A program made the position numbers and the translations under genes. Below the pieces are notes generated by a model that saw only the letters and a list, made by a program, of their open reading frames with translations, did not search any database and was not told the origin of the DNA. Of a DNA stretch of 38,597 nt, positions 157 through 38,568 are shown in pieces; position 1 is the stretch's first letter, and every line of letters starts with the position of its first letter. The DNA is from a bacterium (GTDB lineage Bacteria; UBA6262; WVXT01). The stretch spans positions 1 to 38,597 of the forward strand of contig JBHIBS010000016.1 in assembly GCA_046759165.1 (NCBI GenBank), read 5' to 3'.

Positions 157-3100
157 TTATACCAAGGGTTCCATCTCTAAAGCCGGATGCTTCACCTTCT
201 GCAAAAATGAGAAAAGTTCCTCCGTTGTGGTAGCCACTTCCTCATCACCAATCTTATCTATCAGGTCAGGAACTCCTTCCTCTTCGCACCTCTTCTTAAA
301 TTTCTCTCCCAGCGCTTCTTTGAGCCCTTTTGTCATCCAGACTATGCGCCTTATCCCCCCGTCGGCAGAAATAAACTTTCTGCTCACGATATACAGCCTC
401 CCAATACCCATAAAGCCTGGAGTCTGCGTTCCTCCACCGACGGAACCAGCCAGGGTGCTAAAAGTCATGCCTATTGGAGTCATACCAGCAAATTCCCTAT
501 TTACGATCATAAAACCATTCATCTCAGGAAGTATAGCAATGATGCACTCAAAACAACCACAATTTTTAATCAATATAGCGTTGGCGAAATAGCAATGCTC
601 ATCTGAGGTAGTTAAATTGTAAACATATTTGTACTGGTTTTTGTTCTGAATCTTTTCGACTTTGGTTACAATGTCTAAGAAATAGTCAGTTTCCATTAAA
701 GTTTTAAACATATCTTGCTTCTCTTGAGGTAATGCATCTATGACTTTCGCTACATTTGCCATAACAGGTCTCGACCTTGCTGTTTCGTAGTAGAAATGAG
801 TTGTAGGACTTAATATCTTTCTACTTTCAGGAAGTTCAGCTATAGCCTTTCCAAACGAAAAAGGCAAAACCTGTTCCTGAGACTTGTTAATCTTATTCTC
901 AGATGATAGGAATCTGATATCCTCCAAAATCTCTCTCTTTCTTGGATGCTTAACAGGGATCTGCTCGGCAAACTTAACTAAGTTAGTTCCGTGTAGTTCA
1001 ATCTTATAGACCGATCCTGCCTTCCGGAGATTGCCAATAACCCCTAATCTTTTTAAGAGTAATTGAAGGTGGAATGCAGCTCTTTTTTCTTCTATGCAAA
1101 GATAGGCCTCGCCAATATCCCATTTGTTTCTGTATTTTCTTAACCTTACACTTCCATCACCATCGAAAATACCGGCTAAATAGGAGACAATAAAATTTTG
1201 AGGAAGACTAAGCAACTTGGATAGATTCCACTTACCCTTAGCACCAACTTTTATTCCAAAGTAATTGAGAATAACTCCTAACAGTGGATTATTAGTGTGG
1301 CATAAGAAACATGTCTTAGTAGAATTAATTTTTCTTCCCCTAATTTCCCCTTTACTTTTACCTTTAAGTCTAACGTTTATTGACTTCTCGGGAAAGATTT
1401 GCCGATAAGTATTTGTGTATACAGAAATTAGCTCTTCATTTGTATTTATAAAGTCAATCCAGTATTCATACTTACCCCAGCGAGAAATTGAACCGTCAGA
1501 GGTGATTAGACCTGCCAGGTAGAATAGTTCGGGACTCAGAGCTTCAGGGAGATTGACTACAGAAGCAGCACGAGCAATTTTTCTAACCGACTTTTTAACC
1601 TCCTCCCAATCCTCACCTAAATCCTCTACAATAAGCTTAAGAGATTTTAAAGTAAAGCCTTTTAATCTTGGATTATATCTTCCCCAATTCAATTTTTTCC
1701 AGGCTGAAGACAGCGAGCCGTATTTTGCCTTTAATTTATGCTTGATTAAAGTTATCAGCGCTTCGTCCCTCACCCAAAAATCGTCAGGAATGAGGTTGAT
1801 AATCTCTGGGGTTTGGCTGGGTAATTCTAATTTTCTAAATGATATCGTCCTATCCCCGGGCACAACTTTCTCACTCATAACCCAACTCAAACCTTCTGAC
1901 CTATCTATGGCAATTTTGTGCTCCCTGGTCAAAATAATCTCTGCACCTGATTTGGTAGTCAGTTTTATTAAATTTTTTGGGGCAGGAAATTTCTGTATTG
2001 CTACTATTTTCTCTGGCACAGTCTTGCCATTCCTCAAAGTCAAAACTGAGGATTTGGTATATTCTTCTCTTCCTTGATGTTTATTTATAAACTCACCGAC
2101 TTTAACCACTTGTCTATCAATAATTACTTCTGTATTTCCAACACAACAACTCGTCTCTGGAAATGTGATTATAGAATATCCGTGAAATCTTTCCAGGGTC
2201 TTATTTGACTTTTGATAGATGAAATCGTTCACTCCTTTCCACTCACCCCTCACTGGGTCAAGACATTCTCCTTTCTTAACCGGCTGATTCGGTCCTGTGG
2301 GATTCAGCTCATAACATGCGCGAGCATCCAGCCAGGTATAAGCGCCACATAAGCCCAATCTTTCCGGCTTAACTATGCAAACATGATTCGGAGCGAACGA
2401 TTGGCAGAGACTGCAAGAGTAGAGCGTATCCACGCTCTCATCGGTCATTCCTGCCATACGCTCATCACGTTCCTCATAAACTTTTTTGGCCTGGGAAATG
2501 TATTTTTCCACATCTTCCTGTCGAGTGTAAATGGTAACCTGAGCCTTATCCACTATTGCCCCGAAGGTGTCGTGAAGGCGAGCGTGAATAATTACGCCAA
2601 AATGGTGAATCTTAAAACCCTTCTTCTTCGCGTCTTTACTAATCCTTAACCAATTAAGGTCTCTTTGACCCATGTGGAATATCCCCATAGCCTCGTTCAA
2701 AAACGTATGAATCTGCCGTTCTAATATAGGCTCAAAATCCTTCTGCATCTTTCTGCCAGCTACCTCCACATAAATTCCCAAAGGCATAGCGCTGCCTTCC
2801 TGAGCTTTATCTATTTCCGGGCCAATTAATTCTATCTTTCCATCTTCCACTTTATCCAAGTCTCTCGTAGTAACGTACTCAAAAGCTTTGGAATATTTCC
2901 CTCCAAACTGGACATACATCTGTTCTTTTCTCACGGTTTCCCCTTCAAAGGCAGCAGAATAGGCAACGGGAATAGGAATTTCCGTTACCCTCACCTTAAC
3001 GCCACGCACCTGAATAGAAGTAGGAATCAGTTTCTTATGATCGAGTTCTTTCACTAAATGTTCATAGGTGCAGATACCACTAGGCCTTATTTCAGGGATA

Positions 3101-3921
3101 TCGGTATCTGCGATTACAGGAAAACCCATGTTCATAGCTCCTGCGCCAGTAGCATACTTCACATCATCCAGTTCGCCTAAAGTCAAACCAAAGGCGAATA
3201 CTCTATTCTGACAATATTTGAGACACTTCAGCGCCTCTCCCTTCTTATGGCCACCAAAGGTAAGAGCCGCTCTGATAGCCCAGTTGAGCGGATAGATTCC
3301 AGTTATAGTATCGCGTCCGTAAGGAACTATATATGTCTCCCAACCCATCTGGACATTTTCTTCTTTAAGTTGGTCGATTATACTCCTACCATTATGATTA
3401 GAACCAACAAAACATATAATATTTCTCTTCTGAAGTTCTCTGACTATCTCCACCGCCATTTTGTTATCCGGAGCCGCACCTAATATGGCAGCAAAACCGG
3501 GCATCCTGCCATCTACCAGTTGTATCCCATAACTTCTCATCCAGGTATCTGTATAGAAACCCACACAATCGGGTTGGGGTTCTTTGCCATACAGATATCT
3601 CAGGGCAACAATAATTTCTTCTCCAAAAAGGGTGGCTATTCCGGAATCGAGAGCGTCACCAAGATAAGGAAGCCAGAGAGATTTACTCGGCTCCTCTCTC
3701 AAAAGCGACTTTGCTTCTTTTAACACTGGTATCATATCCCCCAAAGTCCTGACTTCAATTCCCAAGAGAGCATAAGCCATAGGGAGAAAGAAACCTGTCT
3801 CGGGAAACTCAACTTTCTGGTCTTTTCCTTTCTCCTTTATAGCTCTATTTAGAAACTCTTCAGCTTCTCCAACAATTTTTCTCCCGCCCCTGATGGCTGC
3901 TCCTGCGACTATTTTCGACAT
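157..3921 (-). CDS. acsB: Acetyl-CoA synthase (bacterial-type ACS, A-cluster subunit), intein-containing precursor; about 725 aa after splicing
   Basis: Full bacterial N-terminal domain, LVDG..PG motif, A-cluster ligands CSLCQSFAPNHVC and GLCGA, and TS|CGCFE split by an insert; ends in ADGGI.RIVWM. 1254 aa minus 529 aa gives 725 aa, the normal AcsB size. Confidence 0.97.
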   Translation of the reverse strand: MSKIVAGAAIRGGRKIVGEAEEFLNRAIKEKGKDQKVEFPETGFFLPMAYALLGIEVRTLGDMIPVLKEAKSLLREEPSKSLWLPYLGDALDSGIATLFGEEIIVALRYLYGKEPQPDCVGFYTDTWMRSYGIQLVDGRMPGFAAILGAAPDNKMAVEIVRELQKRNIICFVGSNHNGRSIIDQLKEENVQMGWETYIVPYGRDTITGIYPLNWAIRAALTFGGHKKGEALKCLKYCQNRVFAFGLTLGELDDVKYATGAGAMNMGFPVIADTDIPEIRPSGICTYEHLVKELDHKKLIPTSIQVRGVKVRVTEIPIPVAYSAAFEGETVRKEQMYVQFGGKYSKAFEYVTTRDLDKVEDGKIELIGPEIDKAQEGSAMPLGIYVEVAGRKMQKDFEPILERQIHTFLNEAMGIFHMGQRDLNWLRISKDAKKKGFKIHHFGVIIHARLHDTFGAIVDKAQVTIYTRQEDVEKYISQAKKVYEERDERMAGMTDESVDTLYSCSLCQSFAPNHVCIVKPERLGLCGAYTWLDARACYELNPTGPNQPVKKGECLDPVRGEWKGVNDFIYQKSNKTLERFHGYSIITFPETSCCVGNTEVIIDRQVVKVGEFINKHQGREEYTKSSVLTLRNGKTVPEKIVAIQKFPAPKNLIKLTTKSGAEIILTREHKIAIDRSEGLSWVMSEKVVPGDRTISFRKLELPSQTPEIINLIPDDFWVRDEALITLIKHKLKAKYGSLSSAWKKLNWGRYNPRLKGFTLKSLKLIVEDLGEDWEEVKKSVRKIARAASVVNLPEALSPELFYLAGLITSDGSISRWGKYEYWIDFINTNEELISVYTNTYRQIFPEKSINVRLKGKSKGEIRGRKINSTKTCFLCHTNNPLLGVILNYFGIKVGAKGKWNLSKLLSLPQNFIVSYLAGIFDGDGSVRLRKYRNKWDIGEAYLCIEEKRAAFHLQLLLKRLGVIGNLRKAGSVYKIELHGTNLVKFAEQIPVKHPRKREILEDIRFLSSENKINKSQEQVLPFSFGKAIAELPESRKILSPTTHFYYETARSRPVMANVAKVIDALPQEKQDMFKTLMETDYFLDIVTKVEKIQNKNQYKYVYNLTTSDEHCYFANAILIKNCGCFECIIAILPEMNGFMIVNREFAGMTPIGMTFSTLAGSVGGGTQTPGFMGIGRLYIVSRKFISADGGIRRIVWMTKGLKEALGEKFKKRCEEEGVPDLIDKIGDEEVATTTEELFSFLQKVKHPALEMEPLV
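562..2148 (-). mobile_element. Intein with LAGLIDADG homing endonuclease (529 aa, precursor residues 592-1120) in acsB
   Basis: Block A CCVGNTEV, block B LTREHKI (TxxH), LAGLIDADG motifs YLAGLITSDGS and YLAGIFDGDGS, blocks F/G YVYNLTTSDEHCYFANAILIKN followed by +1 Cys. Removal restores FPETS-CGCFEC. Confidence 0.96.
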
Positions 3922-3958: not shown

Positions 3959-4717
3959 TCAAATTATACCTGTTTTAATTTCACTTATTTTCCTACTCAA
4001 GTCTTTCCTTTTACAATCCATACAGATTTCGAAAATCTCTTCTGGCAATTCAATTTTTCCCTTTAATTGTTCCAGTTCCTTTTTAGGGGCAAAATATTTA
4101 CCACAAACTTTACAACTTTTAAGTTCCAATTCTGTGTGCCAGGTTTCCAAGATTCTTTTATCAAACATCTCTTTAATCTTAATTGCCCCCGTGGGACAAA
4201 CTGAACTGCAAGCCCCACAACCTATGCAGACATCAGATTGAGCTTGGAAAGGCGTCTCCACCTCTCTATTTGCCCCCCTATTTATGAATCCTATCACATT
4301 GGCTCCAATTATCTCTTGACAAACACGCACGCAAAGGCCACACAATATGCATTCCTCCTCTTCCTTTTTGAACCTTACCTCTTCAACTTCCACCTTCCTG
4401 GCTAAATCCTTTACTTTCTCTGCCTCTGGAGAGCGAGCCAGAAGAAGCTCAATAATCAACTTTCGACTCTCTACCACCCTCGGGGAACCAGTGTTCACCT
4501 CCATGCCCTCTTCTGCTAAACACGTACAGGAAGCTGTCAGTCCTGGCTTCATTCCTTTAACTACCTCTACTACACAGACCCTGCAAGCACCATAGGGGCT
4601 GACTCCTTCGTGATAACATAGAGTAGGAATTTCGATTCCCAGTTTCTTAGCCGCGTGGAGAACCGTTGCGCCCTTCTCCACTGTAACTTTCTTACCATCA
4701 ATACTTAGATTTAACAT
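3959..4717 (-). CDS. HydA/NuoG N-terminal-like iron-sulfur subunit ([2Fe-2S] plus 2x[4Fe-4S], C-terminal CxxC...CxxC), with no H-cluster or Mo/W domain
   Basis: IPTLC...GACRVC...ASC [2Fe-2S] motif; CILCGLCVRVC and CIGCGACSSVCP; CKVC and CMDC tail; only 252 aa. Confidence 0.88.
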   Translation of the reverse strand: MLNLSIDGKKVTVEKGATVLHAAKKLGIEIPTLCYHEGVSPYGACRVCVVEVVKGMKPGLTASCTCLAEEGMEVNTGSPRVVESRKLIIELLLARSPEAEKVKDLARKVEVEEVRFKKEEEECILCGLCVRVCQEIIGANVIGFINRGANREVETPFQAQSDVCIGCGACSSVCPTGAIKIKEMFDKRILETWHTELELKSCKVCGKYFAPKKELEQLKGKIELPEEIFEICMDCKRKDLSRKISEIKTGII

Positions 4718-4726
4718 TTATTTCTC

Positions 4727-6631
4727 TCAGTCTACCTCTACTGCATCAAAATTGCAAATTTCAAAACATATCCCGCACTTAATGCACCTGCTTTCACCTA
4801 TCGAATGCGGCTTCTTCTTCTCTCCAGAAATTGCCCCTTGAGGACATTCCTTCAGGCAGAGCCCGCAACCTGTGCACTTCTCTCTATTTATTGAGTAGTG
4901 AATTAAATCTGGACAGATATGAGCCGGGCATTTCTTATCCCTTATGTGAGTTTCGTACTCATTACGAAAATATCGCAGAGTAGTCAATACTGGATTGGGT
5001 GCTGTTCCTCCCAATGCACAAAGTGAAGCATCTTTAACTACTTTGGCCAGACTCTCCAGCAATTCTAAGTCACTCTCTTCCGCTTTGCCCTTACTTATAT
5101 CATCGAGAATCTCCAACATCCTCTTTATGCCTTCTCTACAAGGCGTACATTTTCCGCAGGATTCATCTTTTGTGAAATTAAGAAAATACTTAGCCACATT
5201 TACCATACAAGTATCTTCATCCATAACCACCATTCCACCCGAACCCATCATCGAACCCGCTTGAGTTAACTGTTCGTAATCGACCTCCAAGTCAAGCAAT
5301 TCTGAGGGAATACAACCACCTGAAGGACCTCCTGTCTGCACTGCCTTGAACTTCTTACCTTCAGGAATTCCTTCTCCAATATCATAAATCATCTCCCTCA
5401 ATTTAATCCCCATGGGAACTTCTACCAATCCTGTGTTATTAATCTTCCCTACCAAAGAGAAAACCATTGTGCCTTTACTTTTTAAAGTCCCCATCTTAGA
5501 ATACCAATTTGCTCCCCCGGCTATGATGACAGGAACATTTGCCCATGTCTTGACATTATTAATATTTGTCGGCTTATCCCATAGTCCTCTTTCTGCAGGG
5601 AAGGGTGGCCTTGGTCTGGGCTCACCTATTCTGCCCTCAATAGAAGCTAATAACGCGGTCTCTTCTCCGCAAACGAAAGCTCCTGCTCCCTGGCTTATCC
5701 TTACTTTGAAATCGAATCCAGAATTAAATATGTTTTCTCCCAGAAGACCATATTCTTCAGCCTGCTCAATTGCCCGCTCGACACTGTGATAAGCCAAGGG
5801 ATACTCGTTCCTCACATAAATATATCCATCATGGGAACCTATGGCATATGCTCCAATAACCATGCCTTCCAAAATGGTATGAGGATCTCCCTCAAGTATG
5901 CTCCTATCCATATATGCGCCAGGGTCGCCTTCATCAGCATTACAAATTATATATTTCGGATCTCCCGGGGCATCTCGACAGAATTTCCATTTAAGACCCG
6001 TAGGAAATCCTGCTCCCCCTCTGCCCCTTAAACCGGAGTTCTTTATCTCTTCAATTACTTGTTCTTCCTTGAAGCCGGAGAGAACTCTGGCTAGAGAGAA
6101 GTAACCACCTCGAGCTATATATTCTTCTATATTATCAGGGTTCATAAAACCACAGTTTCTCAAGGCAATCTTCTTTTGTTTCTTATAAAATGGGAGCTCT
6201 CGATATAATGGAATATCTTTTCCATCTTTTCCCGTAATAGAATATCCTTTTTTTATATTTTCTATTATGAACTCTTCTTCTTCCAGTCTACAAAGGGCCC
6301 ATTCTTTCCTCATTTTCCCTTGGGCAAGTCCGAGCACCAAATCCCTCGCCTTTTCAGGATCCATTTCAGAATAGATTATCCGCGATTTCCCGGGTTGCCA
6401 GACATCAACCAATGGTTCTTTCTGGCAAAATCCAAGACAGCCTGTCTTGCAAACTACGGCATCAATTCCTTGTTTTTCTATTTCCTCAATTATCGAATCA
6501 AATACTGCCCGGGCACCTGTGGCTATTCCGCAAGTTCCCAACCCCACATTTATTTTTGTCCTCTTGGGGTAAAGAGAGTCTAAACCCTTAGCTTTTAATC
6601 CTTCAAGGTCTTTCAGGTTTTTTATTTTCAT
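4727..6631 (-). CDS. HydB/NuoF-like FMN/NAD-binding subunit (electron-bifurcating-type architecture)
   Basis: GLRGRGGAGFPTG, NADEGDPGAYMDR, GAFVCGEET, GGPSGG, SCGKCTPCREG...LC; N-terminal thioredoxin-like Fe-S domain; C-terminal 2x[4Fe-4S]. Confidence 0.93.
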   Translation of the reverse strand: MKIKNLKDLEGLKAKGLDSLYPKRTKINVGLGTCGIATGARAVFDSIIEEIEKQGIDAVVCKTGCLGFCQKEPLVDVWQPGKSRIIYSEMDPEKARDLVLGLAQGKMRKEWALCRLEEEEFIIENIKKGYSITGKDGKDIPLYRELPFYKKQKKIALRNCGFMNPDNIEEYIARGGYFSLARVLSGFKEEQVIEEIKNSGLRGRGGAGFPTGLKWKFCRDAPGDPKYIICNADEGDPGAYMDRSILEGDPHTILEGMVIGAYAIGSHDGYIYVRNEYPLAYHSVERAIEQAEEYGLLGENIFNSGFDFKVRISQGAGAFVCGEETALLASIEGRIGEPRPRPPFPAERGLWDKPTNINNVKTWANVPVIIAGGANWYSKMGTLKSKGTMVFSLVGKINNTGLVEVPMGIKLREMIYDIGEGIPEGKKFKAVQTGGPSGGCIPSELLDLEVDYEQLTQAGSMMGSGGMVVMDEDTCMVNVAKYFLNFTKDESCGKCTPCREGIKRMLEILDDISKGKAEESDLELLESLAKVVKDASLCALGGTAPNPVLTTLRYFRNEYETHIRDKKCPAHICPDLIHYSINREKCTGCGLCLKECPQGAISGEKKKPHSIGESRCIKCGICFEICNFDAVEVD

Positions 6632-7095
6632 TTATATCTCTTTAATATTTCTGGCACTTTTTCTTGTTTTAATCGACCATACGCATCTTCGTCAGTTCTA
6701 ATTACAGGAGCCAAACTACAACATCCAATACAATGAACGGTCTCTAAAGAAAACTTCAAATCGCTGGTCGTCTCGCCAGCCTTTATCTCCAACTCTCTTT
6801 CCAGTTTTTCCAGAATCCTCCTTCCTCCCTTTACAAAGCAGGCAGTTCCCAGACAAACATTTATTAAGTGGCGTCCTCTCGGCTTCAGGCTAAAGGCAGT
6901 ATAGAAAGTAGCAATACCATAGACCCGAATTAAAGGAACATCCAGTTTTTTGGCTACCAGCTTCAAGGCATCTTCGGGCAAATAACCATATTCAAGATTT
7001 ATTTCCTGCAACACAGGAATCACTCCGCCCTTCTCCGGCCTATATTTGTTTATCCTTTTCTCTAAGTCTGTTCCTTTATTCTTCTCGTCAACCAT
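6628..7095 (-). CDS. HydC/NuoE-like [2Fe-2S] subunit
   Basis: YG+ATFY..F, VCLGTACFVKG and CIGCCSLAP motifs; 4-nt overlap with the next gene. Confidence 0.93.
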   Translation of the reverse strand: MVDEKNKGTDLEKRINKYRPEKGGVIPVLQEINLEYGYLPEDALKLVAKKLDVPLIRVYGIATFYTAFSLKPRGRHLINVCLGTACFVKGGRRILEKLERELEIKAGETTSDLKFSLETVHCIGCCSLAPVIRTDEDAYGRLKQEKVPEILKRYK

Positions 7096-7099
7096 CTTT

Positions 7100-7621
7100 T
7101 TATCCTTTGATTATCTTCCCGTCCTTTTTGAAGCCGACCAGAAATTCTGCTTTCTTTAATTTAGCTATCCCTTCTATAGAAAGAAGCTGTAAGGCCTTTG
7201 TAGGACACGATTTAACACAAGCAGGCTCCTCGCCTTTTTCCAATCTTTCCAGACAAAGGTCACACTTGATAATTACCTTTCCTTCCCGATTAACATTCAA
7301 AACTCCAAAAGGACAAACGAGAACACACCACTTGCAGCCGATACACAAATCTTCTTTAATAATGACTGGCTCCCCAGGCGCTAACTTCTCCAGCGCCTTT
7401 GTGGGACAAATTTTGATGCAGGGGGCATCCTCACAATGTCGGCATTGTAAAGGAACAGATAAGTCCCCGTAAGCTTCCACCTTCACCCGAGTCTGTGAAA
7501 GGGGTTCCTCTTTAATGGCTTTGAAAAGGGCTTTGGACTGCGAATGTTCTATAGCACATTGCAGTTCACAAGTCTTACAACCCAGGCACTTATCCAAATC
7601 AACATAAAGAATTGTTTTCAT
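7100..7621 (-). CDS. cooF: CooF-like 4x[4Fe-4S] electron-transfer protein
   Basis: CLGCKTCELQC, CRHCEDAPCIKICP, CIGCKWCVLVCP and KCDLC...CVKSCP motifs; directly after cooS. Confidence 0.88.
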   Translation of the reverse strand: MKTILYVDLDKCLGCKTCELQCAIEHSQSKALFKAIKEEPLSQTRVKVEAYGDLSVPLQCRHCEDAPCIKICPTKALEKLAPGEPVIIKEDLCIGCKWCVLVCPFGVLNVNREGKVIIKCDLCLERLEKGEEPACVKSCPTKALQLLSIEGIAKLKKAEFLVGFKKDGKIIKG

Positions 7622-18597: not shown

Positions 18598-19494
18598 CTA
18601 ATGAGTTGCCTTGCGAATGAAGCGGATTGAAAATTCACTTGCCCTATATGAACTACGAACAAACGGCCCTGATGCCACAAACAGAAACCCCATCTTTTCC
18701 GCTACCCCTTTGTACTGTTCAAATTTGCTCGGAGTAACAAATCTACGAACTTCCAGATGTGAGCTACTCGGCTGTAGATATTGACCCATGGTGAGAATAT
18801 CGCAATCTATTCCTCTCAAATCTTCCATTACACTCAAAATCTCCTGCTCCTCCTCTCCTAAGCCGAGCATCAGACCCGACTTAGTGTAAATATCAGGCTG
18901 CGAAATCTTCACCAACTTGAGCAACTCTAGAGACCTCTCATAAGATGCCGCGCGCCTCACTCTTCTATATAGGGAAGGCACTGTCTCCAAGTTATGTCCG
19001 ATAATGTCGGGCCTTGCCTCCAATACCCGCTCAATTGCTTCTTTATTTCCCGCGAAATCGGGAATAAGTACTTCGATAATCACATCAGGACTTATTGAAC
19101 GAACTTCCTTAATTGTAGAGAAAAATTGAGCAGCCCCTCCATCCGCCAAATCAACGCGGGTAACTGAAGTAATTACTACATGCTTCAAGCCCAATTTCTT
19201 CACCGCTTGGGCTAACCTTTCGGGTTCCTTCTGGTCAACTGGTAAAGGGCTCCCTTTAGCCACACTACAGAACTTACAGTTCCTTGTACAGATATTACCT
19301 AAAATCATGAAAGTGGCTGTAGATTCACTGAAACATTCCCAGATGTTTGGACAGTGCGCTGCCTCACAGACAGTGTTCAAATTTAATCTGCGAAGCAGAT
19401 TTCTCACCTCATATACTTGCTTTAGCCCTCTATTCTTGTCAGAGGGAGCAAGATACAACTCCTTTATTATCCAGGGTGGAAACCTCTTTACCAT
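18598..19494 (-). CDS. lipA: Lipoyl synthase (radical SAM)
   Basis: CEAAHCPNIWEC (CX4CX5C), CTRNCKFC, HNLETV and RSSY. Start set at ATG 19494 (MVKRFPPW). Confidence 0.95.
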   Translation of the reverse strand: MVKRFPPWIIKELYLAPSDKNRGLKQVYEVRNLLRRLNLNTVCEAAHCPNIWECFSESTATFMILGNICTRNCKFCSVAKGSPLPVDQKEPERLAQAVKKLGLKHVVITSVTRVDLADGGAAQFFSTIKEVRSISPDVIIEVLIPDFAGNKEAIERVLEARPDIIGHNLETVPSLYRRVRRAASYERSLELLKLVKISQPDIYTKSGLMLGLGEEEQEILSVMEDLRGIDCDILTMGQYLQPSSSHLEVRRFVTPSKFEQYKGVAEKMGFLFVASGPFVRSSYRASEFSIRFIRKATH

Positions 19495-20164
19495 CTTTCT
19501 CCATTTCCAGATTGAATACTTCTCCAAAGTGTTGTACCAGATGACGGCGAACACCTGCGGGCTCGACTGCCCTGCCCAATATCTGGCTGAGAGAAGTCAC
19601 CATTCTACTTTCAAATCCACAGGGCCTAATTAATGAAAAATAGGATAGGTCTGAATTTATATTGAGGGCAAATCCATGGAAGGTGACCCAGCCCTTTATA
19701 CCAACTCCTATGGAAGCGACCTTTCTCCCTCCTACCCAAACTCCGGTATTGTTTTCAATCCTTTGCGCATCTATTCCGTAAACTTTCAATGAACGGATGA
19801 TTACTTCTTCGAGATTTCTCAAATACCTATGTATATTTTTCCCATGAAACCTTAGATCGAGAATTGGATAGCCTACGAGCTGTCCGGGACAATGGAGAGT
19901 AACATCCCCTCCCCTGTCGATTTCAAAAACTCTAATTCCTTTGCTCTGCAGGAACTCTCCTGAAACTAAGATATTATCCCTCTCACCTTTCCTTCCAATA
20001 GTCACCACTGGCTCATGCTCTAGTAGAATCAAAACATCATCGATTCTTCCTTCTCTCCTGAATTTATGGAGTCTCCTCTGTAAATCGTAAGCTTTCTCAT
20101 AACCAACAAGTCCCAGGTCGAGCACTCTACATTTAACCATCCTTCCCGTGATTCTCGTCTCCAC
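19439..20164 (-). CDS. lipB: Octanoyltransferase (start may be 20140)
   Basis: LEHEPVVT.GR, DRGGDVT.H.PGQLVGYPI, KVASIG, HGFALN and PCG. Confidence 0.94.
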   Translation of the reverse strand: METRITGRMVKCRVLDLGLVGYEKAYDLQRRLHKFRREGRIDDVLILLEHEPVVTIGRKGERDNILVSGEFLQSKGIRVFEIDRGGDVTLHCPGQLVGYPILDLRFHGKNIHRYLRNLEEVIIRSLKVYGIDAQRIENNTGVWVGGRKVASIGVGIKGWVTFHGFALNINSDLSYFSLIRPCGFESRMVTSLSQILGRAVEPAGVRRHLVQHFGEVFNLEMEKDGKEVSTLDNKGVVSCSL

Positions 20165-21585
20165 TATTTCTTCCTCAAATCGATAGCCTCTCCCTGGACA
20201 TCATGAGCTGCTTCAAATATTGCCTCACTCAAAGTGGGATGGCCATGAATCATCCTTTCCAAATCCTTAGTGGTAACTCTCGCTTTAATAGCCACACTGG
20301 CCTCAGCTATCAATTCCGTAGCATCCGGACCAACTATATGTACCCCTAATATCTCATCAGTTTTTCTATCCGCTACTATTTTCACCATCCCTGCCCTCTC
20401 TCCCAGAATGGTTGCCCTGGCACTGGCCAAGAAGGGGAATCTTCCCACAGCCACTTCATAACCCATTTCTCTTGCTTTCTCCTCACTGAGACCAACGCTG
20501 GCAACTTCGGGGATAGAATAGATACAATTGGGAATAACCCTATAGTCGATTCTTAATCGATTACCCATCGCATTTTCACTAGCCACAATACCCTCGCCCG
20601 AGGCGACATGGGCAAGAAGAACCCCGCCCACTACATCTCCAATGGCAAATATTCCTCGAAGATTCGTTTCCATCCTCTCATTTACCAATATTCTCCCCTT
20701 TTCCAGCCCAATTCCTGTCTTCTCCAGACCCAGACCCTCTGTATAAGGCTTCCTACCTGTAGCAATCAGCACCTTCTGGGCAATTTTTTCTTTTTTTCCT
20801 TGGGGAGTCTCTATTACAACTTTCTTTTTGCCATTGTCAGATACTATCTCTTTAACTTTGACTCCTGTGTTTACTTCTATTCCAGACCTGACCAAAAATT
20901 TCTTCAATTCTTCAGATATTTCTCCGTCCTCCGTGGGAATAATCCGTGGCAGTAGTTCAACAATTGTCACCTTACTTCCCAAGCTGTTAAATATAGAAGC
21001 AAATTCAACTCCAATAACCCCACCTCCCACAATAAGCAGCGAAGAGGGAATTTCTTCCAATTCCAGAGCCTGGTTGCTGGTCATCACATCCCGTTCATCT
21101 ATGGAGATCCCAGGAATCTGGGCAGGGATAGAACCTGTGGCAATGATCAACTTTTTAGCCATAAGTTTTTCTACTGAACCATCATCTTTCTCTACTTCAA
21201 TCTCGACCAGGTTATCCTTAATTCTCTCAGTCAACCTCCCTTTTCCTTTTATCACCTCAACGACATAGCTTTTGAATAACTGACCTATTCCACTAACAAG
21301 TTGTTTTACTATCTTTTCTTTTCTTCTACATATTTTAGAGAAATCTACACTGACTTCTCCAGAATTGATTCCAAACTCGCCTCCCTTCTTAACTGAATCG
21401 AGAACCTGAGCACTTGCCAGAAGCGTCTTTGTGGGAATACAGCCTCTGTTCACACAGGTTCCTCCCAGTTCGCCTTTTTCAATCACTACTACTTTACCGC
21501 CCAACTGGGAAGCCCTGATTGCCGCCACATAACCCCCTGGTCCAGCGCCGATTATGGCGATGTCATAATTTGCATTTGAGTCCAT
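20164..21585 (-). CDS. lpdA: Dihydrolipoamide dehydrogenase
   Basis: GAGPGGYVAA, GGTCVNRGCIPTK, GGGVIGVE and HPTLSE. Start set at ATG 21585 (RBS GGAAGAGGGG). Confidence 0.95.
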   Translation of the reverse strand: MDSNANYDIAIIGAGPGGYVAAIRASQLGGKVVVIEKGELGGTCVNRGCIPTKTLLASAQVLDSVKKGGEFGINSGEVSVDFSKICRRKEKIVKQLVSGIGQLFKSYVVEVIKGKGRLTERIKDNLVEIEVEKDDGSVEKLMAKKLIIATGSIPAQIPGISIDERDVMTSNQALELEEIPSSLLIVGGGVIGVEFASIFNSLGSKVTIVELLPRIIPTEDGEISEELKKFLVRSGIEVNTGVKVKEIVSDNGKKKVVIETPQGKKEKIAQKVLIATGRKPYTEGLGLEKTGIGLEKGRILVNERMETNLRGIFAIGDVVGGVLLAHVASGEGIVASENAMGNRLRIDYRVIPNCIYSIPEVASVGLSEEKAREMGYEVAVGRFPFLASARATILGERAGMVKIVADRKTDEILGVHIVGPDATELIAEASVAIKARVTTKDLERMIHGHPTLSEAIFEAAHDVQGEAIDLRKK

Positions 21586-21621
21586 CCCCTCTTCCTTTCT
21601 GCTTTCGCAATTCACTGGTCG

Positions 21622-21707
21622 GGCACCATTTATGGTGCCGTTCAATTCTCATAACAGCAAAGCGCGAGCTTTGCCTTAGGTAAAAAATGACTCTGACCCC
21701 TTTTTTT
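21622..21707. repeat. Cluster of short palindromes and a half-site related to the 13967/14052 repeat
   Basis: GGCACCAT-TT-ATGGTGCC (21622-21639), GCAAAGC-GCGA-GCTTTGC (21657-21674) and AAAAAATGACTCTGACCCCTTTT (21682-21704). Confidence 0.65.
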
Positions 21708-21719
21708 CTTTTTTTTCTG

Positions 21720-22382
21720 TTAACTACCCAGTGTCAAGGTACGGGGCTTTATAAGTTTCGAATGGTCCTTTGCAGGTTGTATGGCTTTCATTCTATCGAG
21801 GTTTCCTCTCTTTTTCAACTCTTCATAAATAAGTGCCCAGCCACAATCACGCTCAGGATCAACCTCACATTTCCCTTCAGAACTTCCCCCGCAAGGACCA
21901 TTGAGAAGTCCCTTTGAGCAGCGAGTAACAGGGCAGATTCCACCCGTTACTTCTAAAAGACAATCTCCACAAAGACTACATTTCTCCTCAAAATATCCTG
22001 CCCTTACCACTTCCCCGAGGAAAAGTGTGTTGCATCCCGGATAGACCGGTTTTTCCATCTTTATCCTCTCTGCGCTTTCCTTTACAGTCTGCACCCCGTT
22101 ACCGCAAGCCATTACTAAAATGGCATCAGTTGAGGCAATCTTATCTTTATTTGCCTGGAAACTCTTCTTTACCTCCACGCCCTGGCAGGCTGGGTCTATA
22201 ACTACCCAACCACTCACCTTCTTGCCTTGACCCTCCAATTTCTCTTTCATAACTTTAACTTCTTCTTCACCACCAACTTTACACACAGTTGCGCACTGTG
22301 CACAACCCACAATAAATATGGACTTTTCATCCTTAAAAAACGAAAGGATTTCCTCAAATGGTTTCTGTTCCATTATTACCAT
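21720..22382 (-). CDS. metV: MetV, iron-sulfur/Zn partner subunit of methylene-THF reductase
   Basis: GCAQCATVC..GG, C, ACGNG.Q and C..CGDC.L..TGGICP.TRCSKGLLNGPCGG...GKCEVD...CGW. Confidence 0.9.
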   Translation of the reverse strand: MVIMEQKPFEEILSFFKDEKSIFIVGCAQCATVCKVGGEEEVKVMKEKLEGQGKKVSGWVVIDPACQGVEVKKSFQANKDKIASTDAILVMACGNGVQTVKESAERIKMEKPVYPGCNTLFLGEVVRAGYFEEKCSLCGDCLLEVTGGICPVTRCSKGLLNGPCGGSSEGKCEVDPERDCGWALIYEELKKRGNLDRMKAIQPAKDHSKLIKPRTLTLGS

Positions 22383-26377: not shown

Positions 26378-26716
26378 TTAACAGGTTAAATGCAAGGCAA
26401 CGATAGTTTTATTTGATTTAAAAAGCCGATTATATGCATCACAAGCCCTTTTAGTCGTATCTACCACCAATTTAATCCCTTGGGAAGTTATATAACTTTC
26501 CATTTCCTTAGGCACTTCCATCAATCCGGAAGCTCCAGTACCAATAATTAGAATCTGGGGCTTCTGTTCTATAGCTTTCTCAATATCAACTAACTGGAGT
26601 CGGTGACCTTCCTTTCGCCACCAATTACCATCAACATGGTCAGGGTAGATTATCACATCACAGTTGTATTCTTTCCCATCGACAATTATCCTGCCAAAAC
26701 TGTAGAAGTCTATCAT
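26378..26716 (-). CDS. Mth938-like domain protein
   Basis: YSFG.I.VDGKEY..DVII, WWRKEGH, IIGTG..G.M and C-terminal LHLTC. Confidence 0.85.
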   Translation of the reverse strand: MIDFYSFGRIIVDGKEYNCDVIIYPDHVDGNWWRKEGHRLQLVDIEKAIEQKPQILIIGTGASGLMEVPKEMESYITSQGIKLVVDTTKRACDAYNRLFKSNKTIVALHLTC

Positions 26717-26971: not shown

Positions 26972-28225
26972 TTATTCCTTTCCCAGTCTTTTCTTGTATA
27001 AGGGAAATTTTTTGGTTAATTTACGTACTTCCTTTTTCAAATTCGCAAGATAGCCCTCATCATAACGATGATCGAGGGCATCTGATATCAACGCGGCAAT
27101 TTTCTCCATATCTTCTTCTCTCATCCCCCTAGTCGTCAGGGCCGGTGTCCCCAAACGAATCCCACTGGTCACAAAGGGTTTCTCAGGATCGTAGGGAATA
27201 CTGTTCTTGTTAACTGTAATACCTGCCTTATCTAAAACTTCCTCAGCTACATCTCCTGTCAATCTCTTATTCCTCAAATCTACCAGCATCAGGTGTGTAT
27301 CTGTACCTCCAGAAACAATCTTGAAGCCCCTCCTTATCAATCCCTCGGCCAGCGCCCTAGCATTCTTTACTATGTGAGCCTGATATTTTCTAAATCCGGG
27401 CATAAGCGCCTCCTCGAAGGCCACAGCTTTGGCAGCAATAACGTGCATGAGAGGACCTCCCTGTATTCCAGGAAAGATATTTCTGTCTATAACCGAAGCA
27501 TACCTCTTCTTACACATCACCATTCCCCCCCTTGGTCCGCGAAGCGTCTTATGCGTTGTAGTGGTTACAAAGTCAGCGTAAGGAACGGGAGAAGGGTGCA
27601 GGTCAGCAGCGATCAGTCCAGCTATATGGGCAACATCGGCCATCAGAAAAGCATCCACCCTGTCGCAGACCTCTCGAAACTTCCTAAAATCTATAATCCT
27701 GGAATAGGCGGAGGCCCCAGCAACAATCAATTTTGGTCTATGTTTAATGGCAAGCCTTCTCATCTCCCCGTAATCTATAAGTCCTGTTTTCTTAGATACA
27801 CCTATGGGCACAGTCTTAAAATATTTGCCAGAGAAACTTGTAGGATGGCCATGGGAAAGGTGTCCTCCATGCGACAAGTGCATCCCCATAATTGTATCTC
27901 CTGGTTCAAGAACAGCAAAGTAGACCGCCATATTTGCCTGGGTCCCGGAATGGGCTTGAACGTTCACGTGGTCAGCACCGAACAACTTTTTGGCGCGCTC
28001 AATGGCCAAAGATTCAACCACATCGTAATATTCACATCCCCCATAGAATCTATGGCTGGGATAACCCTCCGCATACTTGTTGGTCATCACTGACCCTTGA
28101 GCTTCCAGAACTGCTTCAGAGACAAAGTTTTCAGAAGCAATCAACTCAAGATTTTCCGCTTGCCTCTTAGTCTCCATGTAAATTGCTTTGTGAACTTCGG
28201 GATCAAATTGTTTCAAGCTTGACAT
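26972..28225 (-). CDS. glyA: Serine hydroxymethyltransferase
   Basis: [35 protein letters not shown] and SGIRLGTPA. Confidence 0.97.
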
Positions 28226-32085: not shown

Positions 32086-32670
32086 TCATAAAGAAAAAGA
32101 AAGTATTACTAAAAGAATACAGGCCAGAGGGAGAAATATAAGAAGTACCATAAAGAAGAGAACTGGTGTCAAAAGTATCAAAAGGGCCTCTAAAGGGGCA
32201 GAAGAATAGACTTCTCTAATAGCAGCCAGCGCAAGAAAAAAACACCAAAGGAGAATAGCGATGGTAAAAATAGACTGAAAGAAGATTCTACCTCTACCTA
32301 ATCCTTCCACTATTAAGGATAGGGGACTAACAAGAATAAAGGGGAACATTGCTAATCCAAAAGTAATGAAAAGGTCGATCACTCTTCCCCTTTTTCCCCA
32401 CACTTCAGCAAAGAAATGGAGAATTCCCACATTAATTATCCAGAAGAAAGTGAGGAGAATCATAATGAGAAAGAGATTCGAAAAGAATGAGACTCTCCCC
32501 GCTCCGGTGAAGCTGGAAACAAATAAAGTGGCTCCAGTAGCAATACTAATTTCTGACAGAATAACAATAGCTACCAGAAAAATCCATGGTCTATGCTCTT
32601 TGGCTCGATTGAGCCCTCTTCCTGGATGGGCAACTAAATCATAAGGGAGCGCTGAATAGTTATTTTCCAT
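32086..32670 (-). CDS. Yip1-like multi-pass membrane protein
   Basis: About five hydrophobic segments; L..P near the N-terminus, H.FAE..G..G and A+REVY pattern. Confidence 0.6.
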   Translation of the reverse strand: MENNYSALPYDLVAHPGRGLNRAKEHRPWIFLVAIVILSEISIATGATLFVSSFTGAGRVSFFSNLFLIMILLTFFWIINVGILHFFAEVWGKRGRVIDLFITFGLAMFPFILVSPLSLIVEGLGRGRIFFQSIFTIAILLWCFFLALAAIREVYSSAPLEALLILLTPVLFFMVLLIFLPLACILLVILSFSL

Positions 32671-36999: not shown

Positions 37000-38568
37000 T
37001 TATTCAGCGCTTACGGGTTCATTCAGCCACTGCCAAAATTTTACCATCATGCCATGCTTAGCCTTGGCTAACTGTGTGTTAATTTCTTCTTCTCTTTTTT
37101 TCTCTTCATCCCTGAGTCGCGCCTGTTTCTCTGCAATTTCAGCAAGTGCCTGCGATGCTTCCTTTTCCTTAGTTAACTCTGTTTCTAACTCTTTTATCTT
37201 TCTCTCTTTCTCACTCAGCTCTTCTGACGCTGCCATTTCCGTCTCTACTACTTTAGCCTTCATTCTTCTTATCTCTTCCTCTTTACTTCTAACCATTTCT
37301 TCCTTATCCAAAGACTCATTTTTTTCTATTTCCAATTCCTTTCTTAGCCCTTCTATCTTCTCCTCCAGTTCTGCCTTTGGTCCCTCTGATTGTTTTCTCT
37401 TCTCTTCTACCTCATTTTGAAGCTCTTCTTTTCGCCGGGAAAACTCTTCTTGCATCTGCTTTATCTTTTGCTTAATTTCATTATTCTCTTCTTCTTTTAC
37501 TTTTAACCTTTCTTCCCATTGCGACCTCTGATTTTGTAATTCTTTCTCTAGCTTTTCCTTTATTGTTTGAAATTCTCCCTCTCTCTCTTCATATAGTTCT
37601 ATCTCCAAGTTTTTGACTTTCTTTTTCATCTCTTCTCTTATCTGGTCTATTTCCTTCTCTCTCTTCTCCCGCTCATGCTTAAGTTCCATATCTTTCTGAG
37701 CTAAGAGCTCCCCAAATGAACCCACCAAGTCCCTCTGCCTTGCCAGTTCCCTTTCTAATGCTTTCAGTTCTATCTCTTTCCTCTGAAATTCACCCTCCAA
37801 TAGGTCTCCCCTTTGAGAAGTTCCTCTATACGGCAGATATTTTTGTTCCTCTAATTTACGATTCACTTCTTTTAGTCTGTCCTCAAGATATTCTGTTAAT
37901 CTCTCTAACCTCTGTTTCAGCCTTCTACTGTCTTCTTTAAATTCCTGCTCTTTATATTCCAATTCCATTTTGAATATCCTGTTCTCATCTTCTCGGCTTA
38001 TAAATTCTTTCTGTCGCATCTTCTTTTCCTCCAAAAGTTTATTCTCTAACTCATCCACTCTCTGCTCCTCTCTTCTCAATTCCTCTTCAGTTCTTGCTAT
38101 TATCTCCCCGCTACTCTTCAACATCTCTCTCAACGTTTGTTTCTCTTTCTGTACTTCCTTTTCCAAATCCTGGAGTCTGGAGGTGAGTTCTTCTTTCTTC
38201 TTAGTTTTCTCTATTTTCAAATTCTCTATTTCCTTATTCAGCTCTGCCTGGAGTTTGCTTTTTTCCTCCTCTTTAGCCTTCAGCTTAGCTTCCATCACAT
38301 CTATCTTCGGAGAGGAGATTCTCCTCTCCTCTTCCAGCTTTTCCCTTATTTCTTTCAACTCCCTTTCAACATGTCCCTTTAAGACATTTGCCTCTTCTTC
38401 TCTCTTAATTCTTTCAAGCTCGAGTTCCTCTATCCTCTGCCTCAGCTCCCTTTCTATTCTATTCTTCTCTTTCTCTTTAGCTCTGAGTCTCCCCTCAAGC
38501 TCACTCTTGACTTCCTCAAATTCTCTCTCCTTATCTTCCAATTTCGCCTTCCCTCTCTTTCTCCTCAT
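37000..38568 (-). CDS. Long Glu/Lys/Arg-rich coiled-coil protein of unknown function; possibly extends past the window edge through a frameshift
   Basis: 522 aa of heptad-like E/K/L/R sequence ending in the short aromatic tail KFWQWLNEP. Confidence 0.75.
   Translation of the reverse strand: MRRKRGKAKLEDKEREFEEVKSELEGRLRAKEKEKNRIERELRQRIEELELERIKREEEANVLKGHVERELKEIREKLEEERRISSPKIDVMEAKLKAKEEEKSKLQAELNKEIENLKIEKTKKKEELTSRLQDLEKEVQKEKQTLREMLKSSGEIIARTEEELRREEQRVDELENKLLEEKKMRQKEFISREDENRIFKMELEYKEQEFKEDSRRLKQRLERLTEYLEDRLKEVNRKLEEQKYLPYRGTSQRGDLLEGEFQRKEIELKALERELARQRDLVGSFGELLAQKDMELKHEREKREKEIDQIREEMKKKVKNLEIELYEEREGEFQTIKEKLEKELQNQRSQWEERLKVKEEENNEIKQKIKQMQEEFSRRKEELQNEVEEKRKQSEGPKAELEEKIEGLRKELEIEKNESLDKEEMVRSKEEEIRRMKAKVVETEMAASEELSEKERKIKELETELTKEKEASQALAEIAEKQARLRDEEKKREEEINTQLAKAKHGMMVKFWQWLNEPVSAE

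Follow-up and report, generated by a model that had tools for sequence, protein, structure and literature searches.

This work concerns a 38,597-nucleotide stretch of bacterial DNA (the window; contig JBHIBS010000016.1 of assembly GCA_046759165.1, GTDB lineage UBA6262; WVXT01) and, close to one of its ends, the gene acsB for acetyl-CoA synthase (ACS), whose reading frame holds a long insert. Very probably, this insert is a splicing-competent and mobile class-1 intein with a LAGLIDADG endonuclease, sitting in the acsB of an Omnitrophota-like bacterium directly before the residue that matches Cys595 of the Moorella enzyme, i.e., the first cysteine of the Cys-Gly-Cys (CGC) tripeptide that binds nickel in the A-cluster of the active site. 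The reading is drawn from sequence comparison and structure prediction, and its parts are given below with the strength that each of them seems to deserve.

Results

The host enzyme and its nickel site

The acsB precursor is one uninterrupted frame of 1254 amino acids plus a stop codon, made of N-extein, intein and C-extein (Table 1). NCBIfam model NF040764 (acetyl-CoA decarbonylase/synthase alpha/beta subunit, AcsB) matches it in two pieces, stopping at precursor residue 592 and resuming at 1120, and NF007078 scores 984.9 against a cut-off of 809. The solved ACS chains in the PDB align in the same broken way, through ...FPETSC and then again from (N)CGCFE..., with precursor residue 592 pairing with residue 595 of Moorella chain 1oao_C and residues 1120-1253 resuming from the same point. 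Pfam finds CODH_A_N, CdhC and ACS_CODH_B_C on the flanks of the precursor, and Intein_splicing and LAGLIDADG_3 in its middle. Taken together, these matches identify the host protein as acetyl-CoA synthase AcsB/CdhC. In the N-extein search it falls with Omnitrophota-labelled sequences, the nearest genome locus among the matches listed being the Omnitrophota chromosome CP070837.1.

The full ligand set of the A-cluster is kept, namely Cys503, Cys506, Cys515 and Cys525 in the N-extein and Cys1121-Gly-Cys1123 at the beginning of the C-extein. Among the Moorella counterparts of the first four, we take Cys506, Cys518 and Cys528 to be ligands of the [4Fe-4S] cluster. According to the available part of PMC10299331, the proximal nickel is held by Cys595, Cys597 and Cys509, the last bridging it to the [4Fe-4S] cluster, and the distal nickel by Cys595, Cys597 and the backbone amides of Cys595-Gly596-Cys597, which agrees with the role that the original prediction had assigned to the CGC tripeptide.

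Anatomy and fold of the intein

The intein takes up 1587 nt (529 amino acids, precursor residues 592-1120), and its exact removal would leave a spliced product with cysteine at residue 592. The original prediction had put an intein of this length, with two intact LAGLIDADG motifs, between PETS and CGCFE, and had named the first cysteine of CGC (mature Cys592) as the +1 nucleophile. The reading of the DNA and the PDB alignment lead to the same split, both motifs keep their acidic residues, and the +1 cysteine aligns with Moorella Cys595. The span first proposed, 556..2151, was right about the insert and inexact about its limits, which are 562..2148: it had included the serine codon at one end and the codons for Cys-Gly at the other. 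Another register, in which the intein would begin at the second cysteine, was ruled out, as such an intein would end in Cys and not in Asn, and as intein-free relatives read ...PETSCGCFE... across the site.

Table 1. Coordinates of the acsB precursor, its exteins and the conserved elements of its intein in the window
Feature	Position	Strand	Basis
acsB precursor ORF (open reading frame)	157..3921	(-)	open frame; NF040764 1002.7 bits (cut-off 800); PDB ACS chains E 1.5e-210, in two stretches
N-extein, residues 1-591, ending ...FPETS	2149..3921	(-)	Pfam CODH_A_N, CdhC and first part of ACS_CODH_B_C; PDB alignment ends at 592
N-extein Cys503, Cys506, Cys515, Cys525	2347..2415	(-)	offset of +3 to 1oao_C: Moorella Cys506/509/518/528
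Ser, last codon of the N-extein	2149..2151	(-)	DNA reading
Intein, class 1 with LAGLIDADG endonuclease, 529 aa	562..2148	(-)	DNA reading; Pfam/NCBIfam; AlphaFold2 pLDDT 89.9; PDB fold matches
Intein Cys1, nucleophile of the first splicing step (second Cys, Cys2, next at 2143..2145)	2146..2148	(-)	DNA reading; Cys1 62/62, Cys2 15/62 family members
Block B LTREH, with Thr74 and His77 (TxxH motif)	1918..1932	(-)	each residue 62/62 family members
LAGLIDADG motif 1, LAGLITSDG, intein residues 211-219, acidic Asp218	1492..1518	(-)	Asp218 59/60 full-length members
LAGLIDADG motif 2, LAGIFDGDG, intein residues 324-332, acidic Asp331	1153..1179	(-)	Asp331 60/60 full-length members
Block F (block-F-like) VYNLT...EHCYFAN, with Asn511	580..624	(-)	V509 and Y510 62/62, N511 59/62
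Block G LIKN, penultimate Lys528 and terminal Asn529	562..573	(-)	Asn529 62/62; penultimate Lys 49/62
Asn529 codon	562..564	(-)	DNA reading
+1 Cys-Gly-Cys (Cys1121-Gly-Cys1123), equivalent to Moorella Cys595-Gly596-Cys597, ligands of both nickel ions	553..561	(-)	DNA reading; PDB alignment; PMC10299331 (available part)
C-extein, residues 1121-1254, plus stop codon	157..561	(-)	query 1120-1253 against residues 599-733 of 7nyp_A (best-scoring chain); ACS_CODH_B_C profile positions 108-245

Of the features that characterize class-1 inteins, the insert has Cys1, the TxxH of block B, and a C-terminal Asn followed by a +1 Cys, and it has Lys528 where the usual penultimate His of block G would stand. 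This His is common among inteins but not obligatory, as inteins lacking it can still splice. Asn511 likewise takes the place of an Asp that is usual in block F. As to the endonuclease, we take the acidic residues of the two LAGLIDADG motifs to be the catalytic ones. The excised 529 residues score above the cut-offs of the intein profiles PF14890 (39.7 against 35.8), PF14528 (46.8 against 22.5) and TIGR01445 (37.2 against 24.5), and the whole precursor does so with TIGR01443 (17.5 against 15.6). These features identify the insert as a canonical class-1 intein with a two-motif LAGLIDADG endonuclease.

The AlphaFold2 model of the intein, made from an 11-row alignment, is a confident one (predicted local distance difference test, pLDDT, 89.9; predicted template modelling score, pTM, 0.90), and in it the N- and C-terminal lobes are predicted to form the Hint fold together. 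Foldseek places the model with known intein structures at probability 1.00, namely PI-TkoII (2cw7, E 5.7e-22), the TliVMA intein (7qss, 4.3e-21), PI-PfuI (1dq3, 5.8e-16) and PI-SceI. Between the N-terminal splicing lobe and the endonuclease there is a helical segment (intein residues 126-200, 1549..1773 on the minus strand), poorly conserved and missing in family members of 447-466 amino acids, which may be an accessory DNA-binding module.

A family of inteins at the same site

The original prediction had proposed a search for AcsB or CdhC proteins with an insert between TS and CGC, and such proteins turn out to be numerous. Precursor residues 575-1140, used as query against a set of 5.8 billion proteins (90%-identity clusters), returned 79 proteins including the query, 71 of them ACS. 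In 62 of these 71 (the window's and 61 other clusters) an Asn stands directly before CGCF, i.e., the intein is at exactly the same site, and in the remaining nine the CGC is uninterrupted and the intein lies elsewhere. We call the inteins before the residue matching Cys595 ACS-b (site b), and those before the residue matching Cys509 ACS-a (site a). Throughout ACS-b the core splicing residues Cys1, Thr74, His77 and Asn529, as well as the +1 Cys of the N/CGCF junction (the slash marking the C-terminal splice point), are without exception (62/62 each), whilst the penultimate residue is Lys in most members (Ala in 11, His in one and Glu in one). Two members are mini-inteins, of 157 and 169 amino acids, without endonuclease.

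Species-representative genomes were scanned with the junction pattern [IV][KA]NCGCFE together with a LAGLIDADG pattern, and the resulting locus counts are lower bounds. The scan gave at least 77 loci, at least 64 of which have the N/CGCF junction, and the record titles of the latter carry nine phylum labels: among the matches listed, Chloroflexota 35, Omnitrophota 8, Planctomycetota 4, Actinomycetota 3, Bipolaricaulota 3, Aerophobota 2, Bacillota 2, Fraseribacteriota 2 and Poribacteria 1, with no phylum read for 4. The 64 listed comprise 43 full-length inteins, 11 minis (149-222 amino acids) and 10 that could not be measured, so that 11 of the 54 measurable ones are endonuclease-less.

Some of the hosts are of unusual build. 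P0057 and P0059, which also bear the intein, are short and CdhC-like and lack the N-terminal domain, and in Anaerolineae metagenome-assembled genomes (MAGs) AcsB is fused to a CdhD (delta subunit) domain (L052:1039-8067 (+) and L044:2638-7881 (+); the same fusion is seen in P0058 and P0060), the L052 protein having 2342 amino acids and inteins at both site a and site b. Distantly related inteins (21-26% identical) were also found in genes without CGCF, in Methanosarcinales MAGs (L062, L066, L067, L072), in Nanobdellota/Woesearchaeota (L064, L069, L074) and in Nitrososphaeria (L071).

A second site at another nickel ligand

The relatives have a single second insertion site, between YSC(T/S)L and CQSFAP, directly before the residue matching Moorella Cys509. 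Junctions were called by anchoring on motifs, and the calls agree with the precursor-based mapping. Over the 175 ACS proteins of the intein and N-extein searches, 101 have no intein, 48 have one at site b only, 14 at both sites and 12 at site a only, the carriers of site a including P0002-P0005, P0007, P0009, P0016, P0018, P0021, P0023, P0026, P0028, P0063-P0071, P0115, P0153 and P0172. The window's own equivalent of site a, between residues 505 and 506 (near 2404-2406 on the minus strand), is empty. Of the three cysteines holding the proximal nickel, two are thus intein +1 residues in one or another of the ACS proteins gathered.

The ACS-a inteins resemble the window's in host gene, in a +1 Cys that is a proximal nickel ligand and in being of class 1 with LAGLIDADG motifs, and their penultimate residue is mostly Lys too (24/26). 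They include its best-scoring relatives from outside site b (23-28% identity and up to 155 bits, against at most 117 bits for inteins of other hosts), but they occupy another site and form a distant sequence family. They also differ in the N-extein, which at site a has a cysteine three residues before Cys1 (C-x-x-C with Cys1) and at site b has none. This spacing is said to be that of the MoaA redox trap.

Signs of mobility

Occupied and empty alleles are found side by side among close relatives. In the 120 best N-extein matches (query included, all at least 74% identical), 101 alleles are intein-free, whilst 8 carry an intein at site b alone, 9 at site a alone and 2 at both. The window's own extein clade (10 members, support 100, all about 90% identical or more) contains six empty, two site-b, one site-a and one double allele, and the intein-free allele P0080 is 93% identical to the window's N-extein.

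Intein and exteins also differ in their nearest relatives. With the inteins of L001 and L002 the window's intein shares 70-71% identity, though the N-exteins are only about 80% identical; with that of P0006 it shares only 55%, though the exteins are 92-93% identical. The comparison of intein and extein phylogenies, likewise proposed beforehand, shows the same conflict: in the intein tree the window groups with L001 and L002 (support 100/99), and the approximately unbiased (AU) test rejects a group of the window, P0002 and P0006 (p 1.8e-4), whereas in the extein tree it groups with P0006 and P0002 (support 100/100), and a group of the window, L001 and L002 is rejected (p 2.9e-72), both groups being post hoc. 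Viewed more broadly, the intein tree tracks the groups of extein context, with 8 changes where shuffling gave 35 on average, so that the spread seems to have been mostly within lineages.

Conservation of the endonuclease region equals that of the N-terminal splicing lobe (identity to L001 is 69% for each of the two, and to L002 74% for each), and the endonuclease looks active. The GC content of the intein is 0.371, against 0.441 and 0.462 in the exteins, and that of third codon positions (GC3) 0.348 against 0.421 and 0.485. On the side of the presumed target, the first and second positions of the seven C-extein codons for CGCFECI are the same in 95-100% of the sequences compared, 55 in all (the window and 54 loci).

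Genomic neighbourhood

By the NCBIfam matches of the window's proteins, acsB stands at the end of a Wood-Ljungdahl cluster lying wholly on the minus strand and comprising fhs, a metF-like gene, fchA, folD, a CooC-like ATPase, the catalytic subunit of carbon monoxide dehydrogenase (CODH), an Fe-S protein, NuoE-, NuoF- and NuoG-N-terminal-like proteins, and acsB itself, 156 bases beyond which the contig ends. The four genes between that for the CODH catalytic subunit and acsB (3959..7621, minus strand; Fe-S protein, NuoE-, NuoF- and NuoG-N-terminal/HoxU-like) suggest that the CODH/ACS operon includes an electron module linked to NAD(P)H or ferredoxin. Further along (18598..21645 and 26972..28225, minus strand), lipA, lipB, a gene for dihydrolipoyl dehydrogenase and glyA (serine hydroxymethyltransferase, SHMT) are found amid the Wood-Ljungdahl folate genes, a placement that may point to an associated branch for glycine cleavage or the reductive glycine route. 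Four minus-strand ORFs have no NCBIfam match at E <= 1e-5, namely 21720..22382 (220 aa), 26378..26716 (112 aa), 32086..32670 (194 aa) and 37000..38568 (522 aa), and the window yielded neither tRNAs nor Rfam elements.

Discussion

If the intein follows the standard splicing pathway, from which the steps proposed here are taken, Cys1 would attack the peptide bond between Ser591 and itself (an N-S acyl shift), the thiol of the +1 Cys, a future nickel ligand, would receive the N-extein by trans-thioesterification, cyclisation of Asn529 would release the intein, and an S-N shift would restore ...PETS-CGCFE.... Only then could the CGC tripeptide and the cluster of Cys503/506/515/525 assemble the [4Fe-4S]-Ni-Ni A-cluster. 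Before splicing no A-cluster would be expected, because the insert separates the four [4Fe-4S] cysteines, in the N-extein, from CGC, in the C-extein, and because the +1 thiol would be consumed as the branch-point nucleophile. That the enzyme would be inactive until splicing occurs, as the original prediction had it, can soundly be inferred from this separation, and in the intein-bearing lineages (at least 64 loci under nine phylum labels) the biogenesis of ACS must then include splicing before assembly of the A-cluster.

As for the intein's own interest, the prediction is that the intein once freed, or its endonuclease domain while still part of the precursor, would cut acsB alleles lacking the intein at a highly conserved DNA stretch and thereby copy itself in. 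The mixture of occupied, empty and endonuclease-less alleles at exteins that are at least 90% identical, the conflict between the trees, the lower GC content and the conserved endonuclease residues point to a mobile, selfish element, which the original prediction had offered as the alternative to a metal- or redox-conditional switch and which the evidence now favours. Remnants without endonuclease are also what a homing cycle is expected to leave behind. The persistence of ACS-b inteins seems best explained by selfish spread combined with the fact that, at an invariant active-site residue, only exact excision would be tolerated; any regulatory use of the intein would be secondary.

Several points weigh against this interpretation or limit it. 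The groups compared in the AU tests were named after the identities had been seen, which makes the p-values post hoc, and the conflict itself could come from recombination within acsB rather than from endonuclease-driven homing. The 34-row outgroup clade of the extein tree is nearly all intein-bearing because it was fetched with the intein as query. All ACS-b loci are from MAGs and take their labels from record titles, so that binning errors are possible (e.g., behind the Planctomycetia and Clostridia labels), and the locus counts, being lower bounds from a biased sample, give no occupancy rate across all ACS genes. Splicing and endonuclease activity are both predicted from conservation, the change of the penultimate His to Lys, together with Asn511 in block F, could mean slow or conditional C-terminal cleavage, and a selfish origin does not exclude a regulatory role.

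The last point leads to the rival that survives best, conditional splicing as a maturation checkpoint, in which a disulfide, or Ni2+, Zn2+ or Cu2+ on the junction thiols, would reversibly block splicing, with the consequence that active ACS would appear only when the cell is reducing and its metal supply controlled. We consider it possible though unlikely, and compatible with a selfish origin. ACS is an oxygen-sensitive enzyme, four cysteines lie within five residues of the two junctions (Cys1, Cys2 in the window's lineage, the +1 Cys and the +3 Cys), and the thiol needed for trans-thioesterification is at the same time a nickel ligand; this thiol being the branch-point nucleophile, a metal or disulfide on it would block the second step of splicing. 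The unusual penultimate Lys shared by both ACS families (49/62 at site b, 24/26 at site a) and the retention of endonuclease-less minis (11 of the 54 measurable loci among the matches listed) could be read in the same sense. There are precedents as well in the available part of PMC10663303, where a disulfide linking Cys1 to an N-extein cysteine traps the P. abyssi intein of MoaA, an oxygen-labile enzyme, and where binding of zinc and copper to active-site residues inhibits the inteins of Prp8 and mycobacterial DnaB. However, the same text reports inhibition by zinc and copper through cysteines for several inteins, so that it need not be adaptive. Cys2 is present in only 15 of the 62 family members and is therefore not a family feature, and with 101 of the 120 closest alleles working without an intein the organism would need no such switch. 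The patchy distribution and the tree conflict are the signature of a parasite, and the minis' persistence is equally explained by the difficulty of an exact deletion at an invariant site.

A bolder version, in which the inteins at both the Cys509 and the Cys595 site are maturation checkpoints whose splicing is stalled by premature binding of Ni or Zn or by oxidation, seems to us more doubtful still. The family-wide penultimate Lys could then be part of the tuning of such checkpoints, and, if true, the idea would mean that Wood-Ljungdahl carbon fixation is switched on post-translationally only when the cell is reduced and nickel has been delivered in order.

That the intein no longer splices and this acsB is a dead remnant, possibly backed by an intein-free paralogue elsewhere, is highly improbable. 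The penultimate His is indeed absent, and the contig ends so soon after acsB that the rest of the genome is outside our view, but the 1254-codon frame is intact, all ligands of the A-cluster are kept, the N-extein remains 93% identical to that of intein-free P0080, every core splicing residue is the family consensus, the penultimate Lys is the family norm (unlike a defect), and the Wood-Ljungdahl cluster around the gene is intact. Least credible of all is an assembly chimera, i.e., foreign intein DNA joined into acsB by the assembler: the lower GC content of the intein (0.371 against 0.44-0.46 in the flanks) would fit it, but the insert is in frame and codon-exact at both junctions, and the recurrence of the same junction and architecture in 61 other protein clusters and at least 64 independent genome loci, including the 1.55-Mb chromosome-level record CP070837.1, makes an artefact very unlikely.

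Returning to the mobile, splicing-competent intein, the type is ordinary, and it is the host and the site that appear to be undescribed in print, the sequences themselves being public. No description of an ACS intein was found in a full-text literature search (subscription-only papers outside its scope), and no ACS or CODH entry in the main text and the two searchable supplementary files (of three) of the intein survey PMC4760082, File 1 of which might list one; the accessible part of a Desulfonema paper that mentions both an intein and acetyl-CoA synthase describes only GyrB and DnaE inteins. The original suspicion that the site had not been described thus holds for the literature searched, whilst any impression of rarity does not, with 61 other clusters and at least 64 loci in the databases. 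What this work adds, as judged from sequence, is a large ACS-b family and a sister site at the other nickel-bridging cysteine. The earlier expectation that most inteins reside in replication and repair proteins matches the available part of PMC4760082, in which COG category L accounts for 61.5% (bacteria) and 66.9% (archaea) of the proteins that carry inteins; the family described here adds the central enzyme of the Wood-Ljungdahl pathway to the hosts of inteins, with both insertion sites at nickel-ligand cysteines.

There are practical sides to this. NCBIfam has no model for an intein-containing ACS, and 10 of the 70 other intein-bearing ACS clusters (P0003, P0014, P0025, P0027, P0036, P0043, P0048, P0051, P0053 and P0071) carry only the NCBI name 'LAGLIDADG family homing endonuclease', so that acsB can be overlooked when the metabolism of MAGs is reconstructed, or lost to length filters. 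The endonuclease presumably targets 40 bp of acsB that are extremely conserved, and it could find use as a marker or tool.

Among inteins of other hosts, those of V/A-ATPase subunit B (P0074-P0076, P0078) and of a thiamine diphosphate (ThDP) enzyme (P0072) are elements of the same kind in conserved catalytic regions, the proteins P0072-P0078 being 24-28% identical to the window's intein, and the NCBIfam intein-containing 'exception' models for Tes and RtcB match the window's protein at E 1.7e-9 and 1e-4; hosts and sites are different in all these cases. The inteins of P. abyssi MoaA, mycobacterial DnaB and Cryptococcus Prp8 are cysteine-based class-1 elements in which the chemistry of a junction thiol controls splicing, and MoaA is, like ACS, an oxygen-labile metalloenzyme (PMC10663303, available part). 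Their responses were measured, whereas for the ACS-b intein a response is a possibility suggested by its sequence; site b moreover has no N-extein Cys near Cys1, and the candidate partners would be Cys2, the +1 Cys and the +3 Cys.

The solved intein endonucleases (PI-TkoII, 2cw7; TliVMA, 7qss, and PhoVMA, 7qst; PI-PfuI, 1dq3; PI-SceI, 1vde, and others) share with the window's intein a Hint domain split by a two-motif LAGLIDADG endonuclease, extra DNA-binding elements, Cys1, TxxH, a terminal Asn and a +1 Cys, and they match its predicted structure with Foldseek E values of 5.7e-22 to 1e-9 and template modelling (TM) scores of up to 0.62 (query) and 0.75 (target). Sequence identity is nevertheless only 11-18%, and the window's intein has a penultimate Lys for His and, in block F, an Asn for the usual Asp. 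Their hosts are a polymerase, a ribonucleotide reductase (RNR) or a V-ATPase, whereas the host here is a Ni-Fe-S metabolic enzyme in which splicing nucleophile and metal ligand are the same atom, and this makes of it a clean natural test bed for the debate on selfish versus regulatory inteins.

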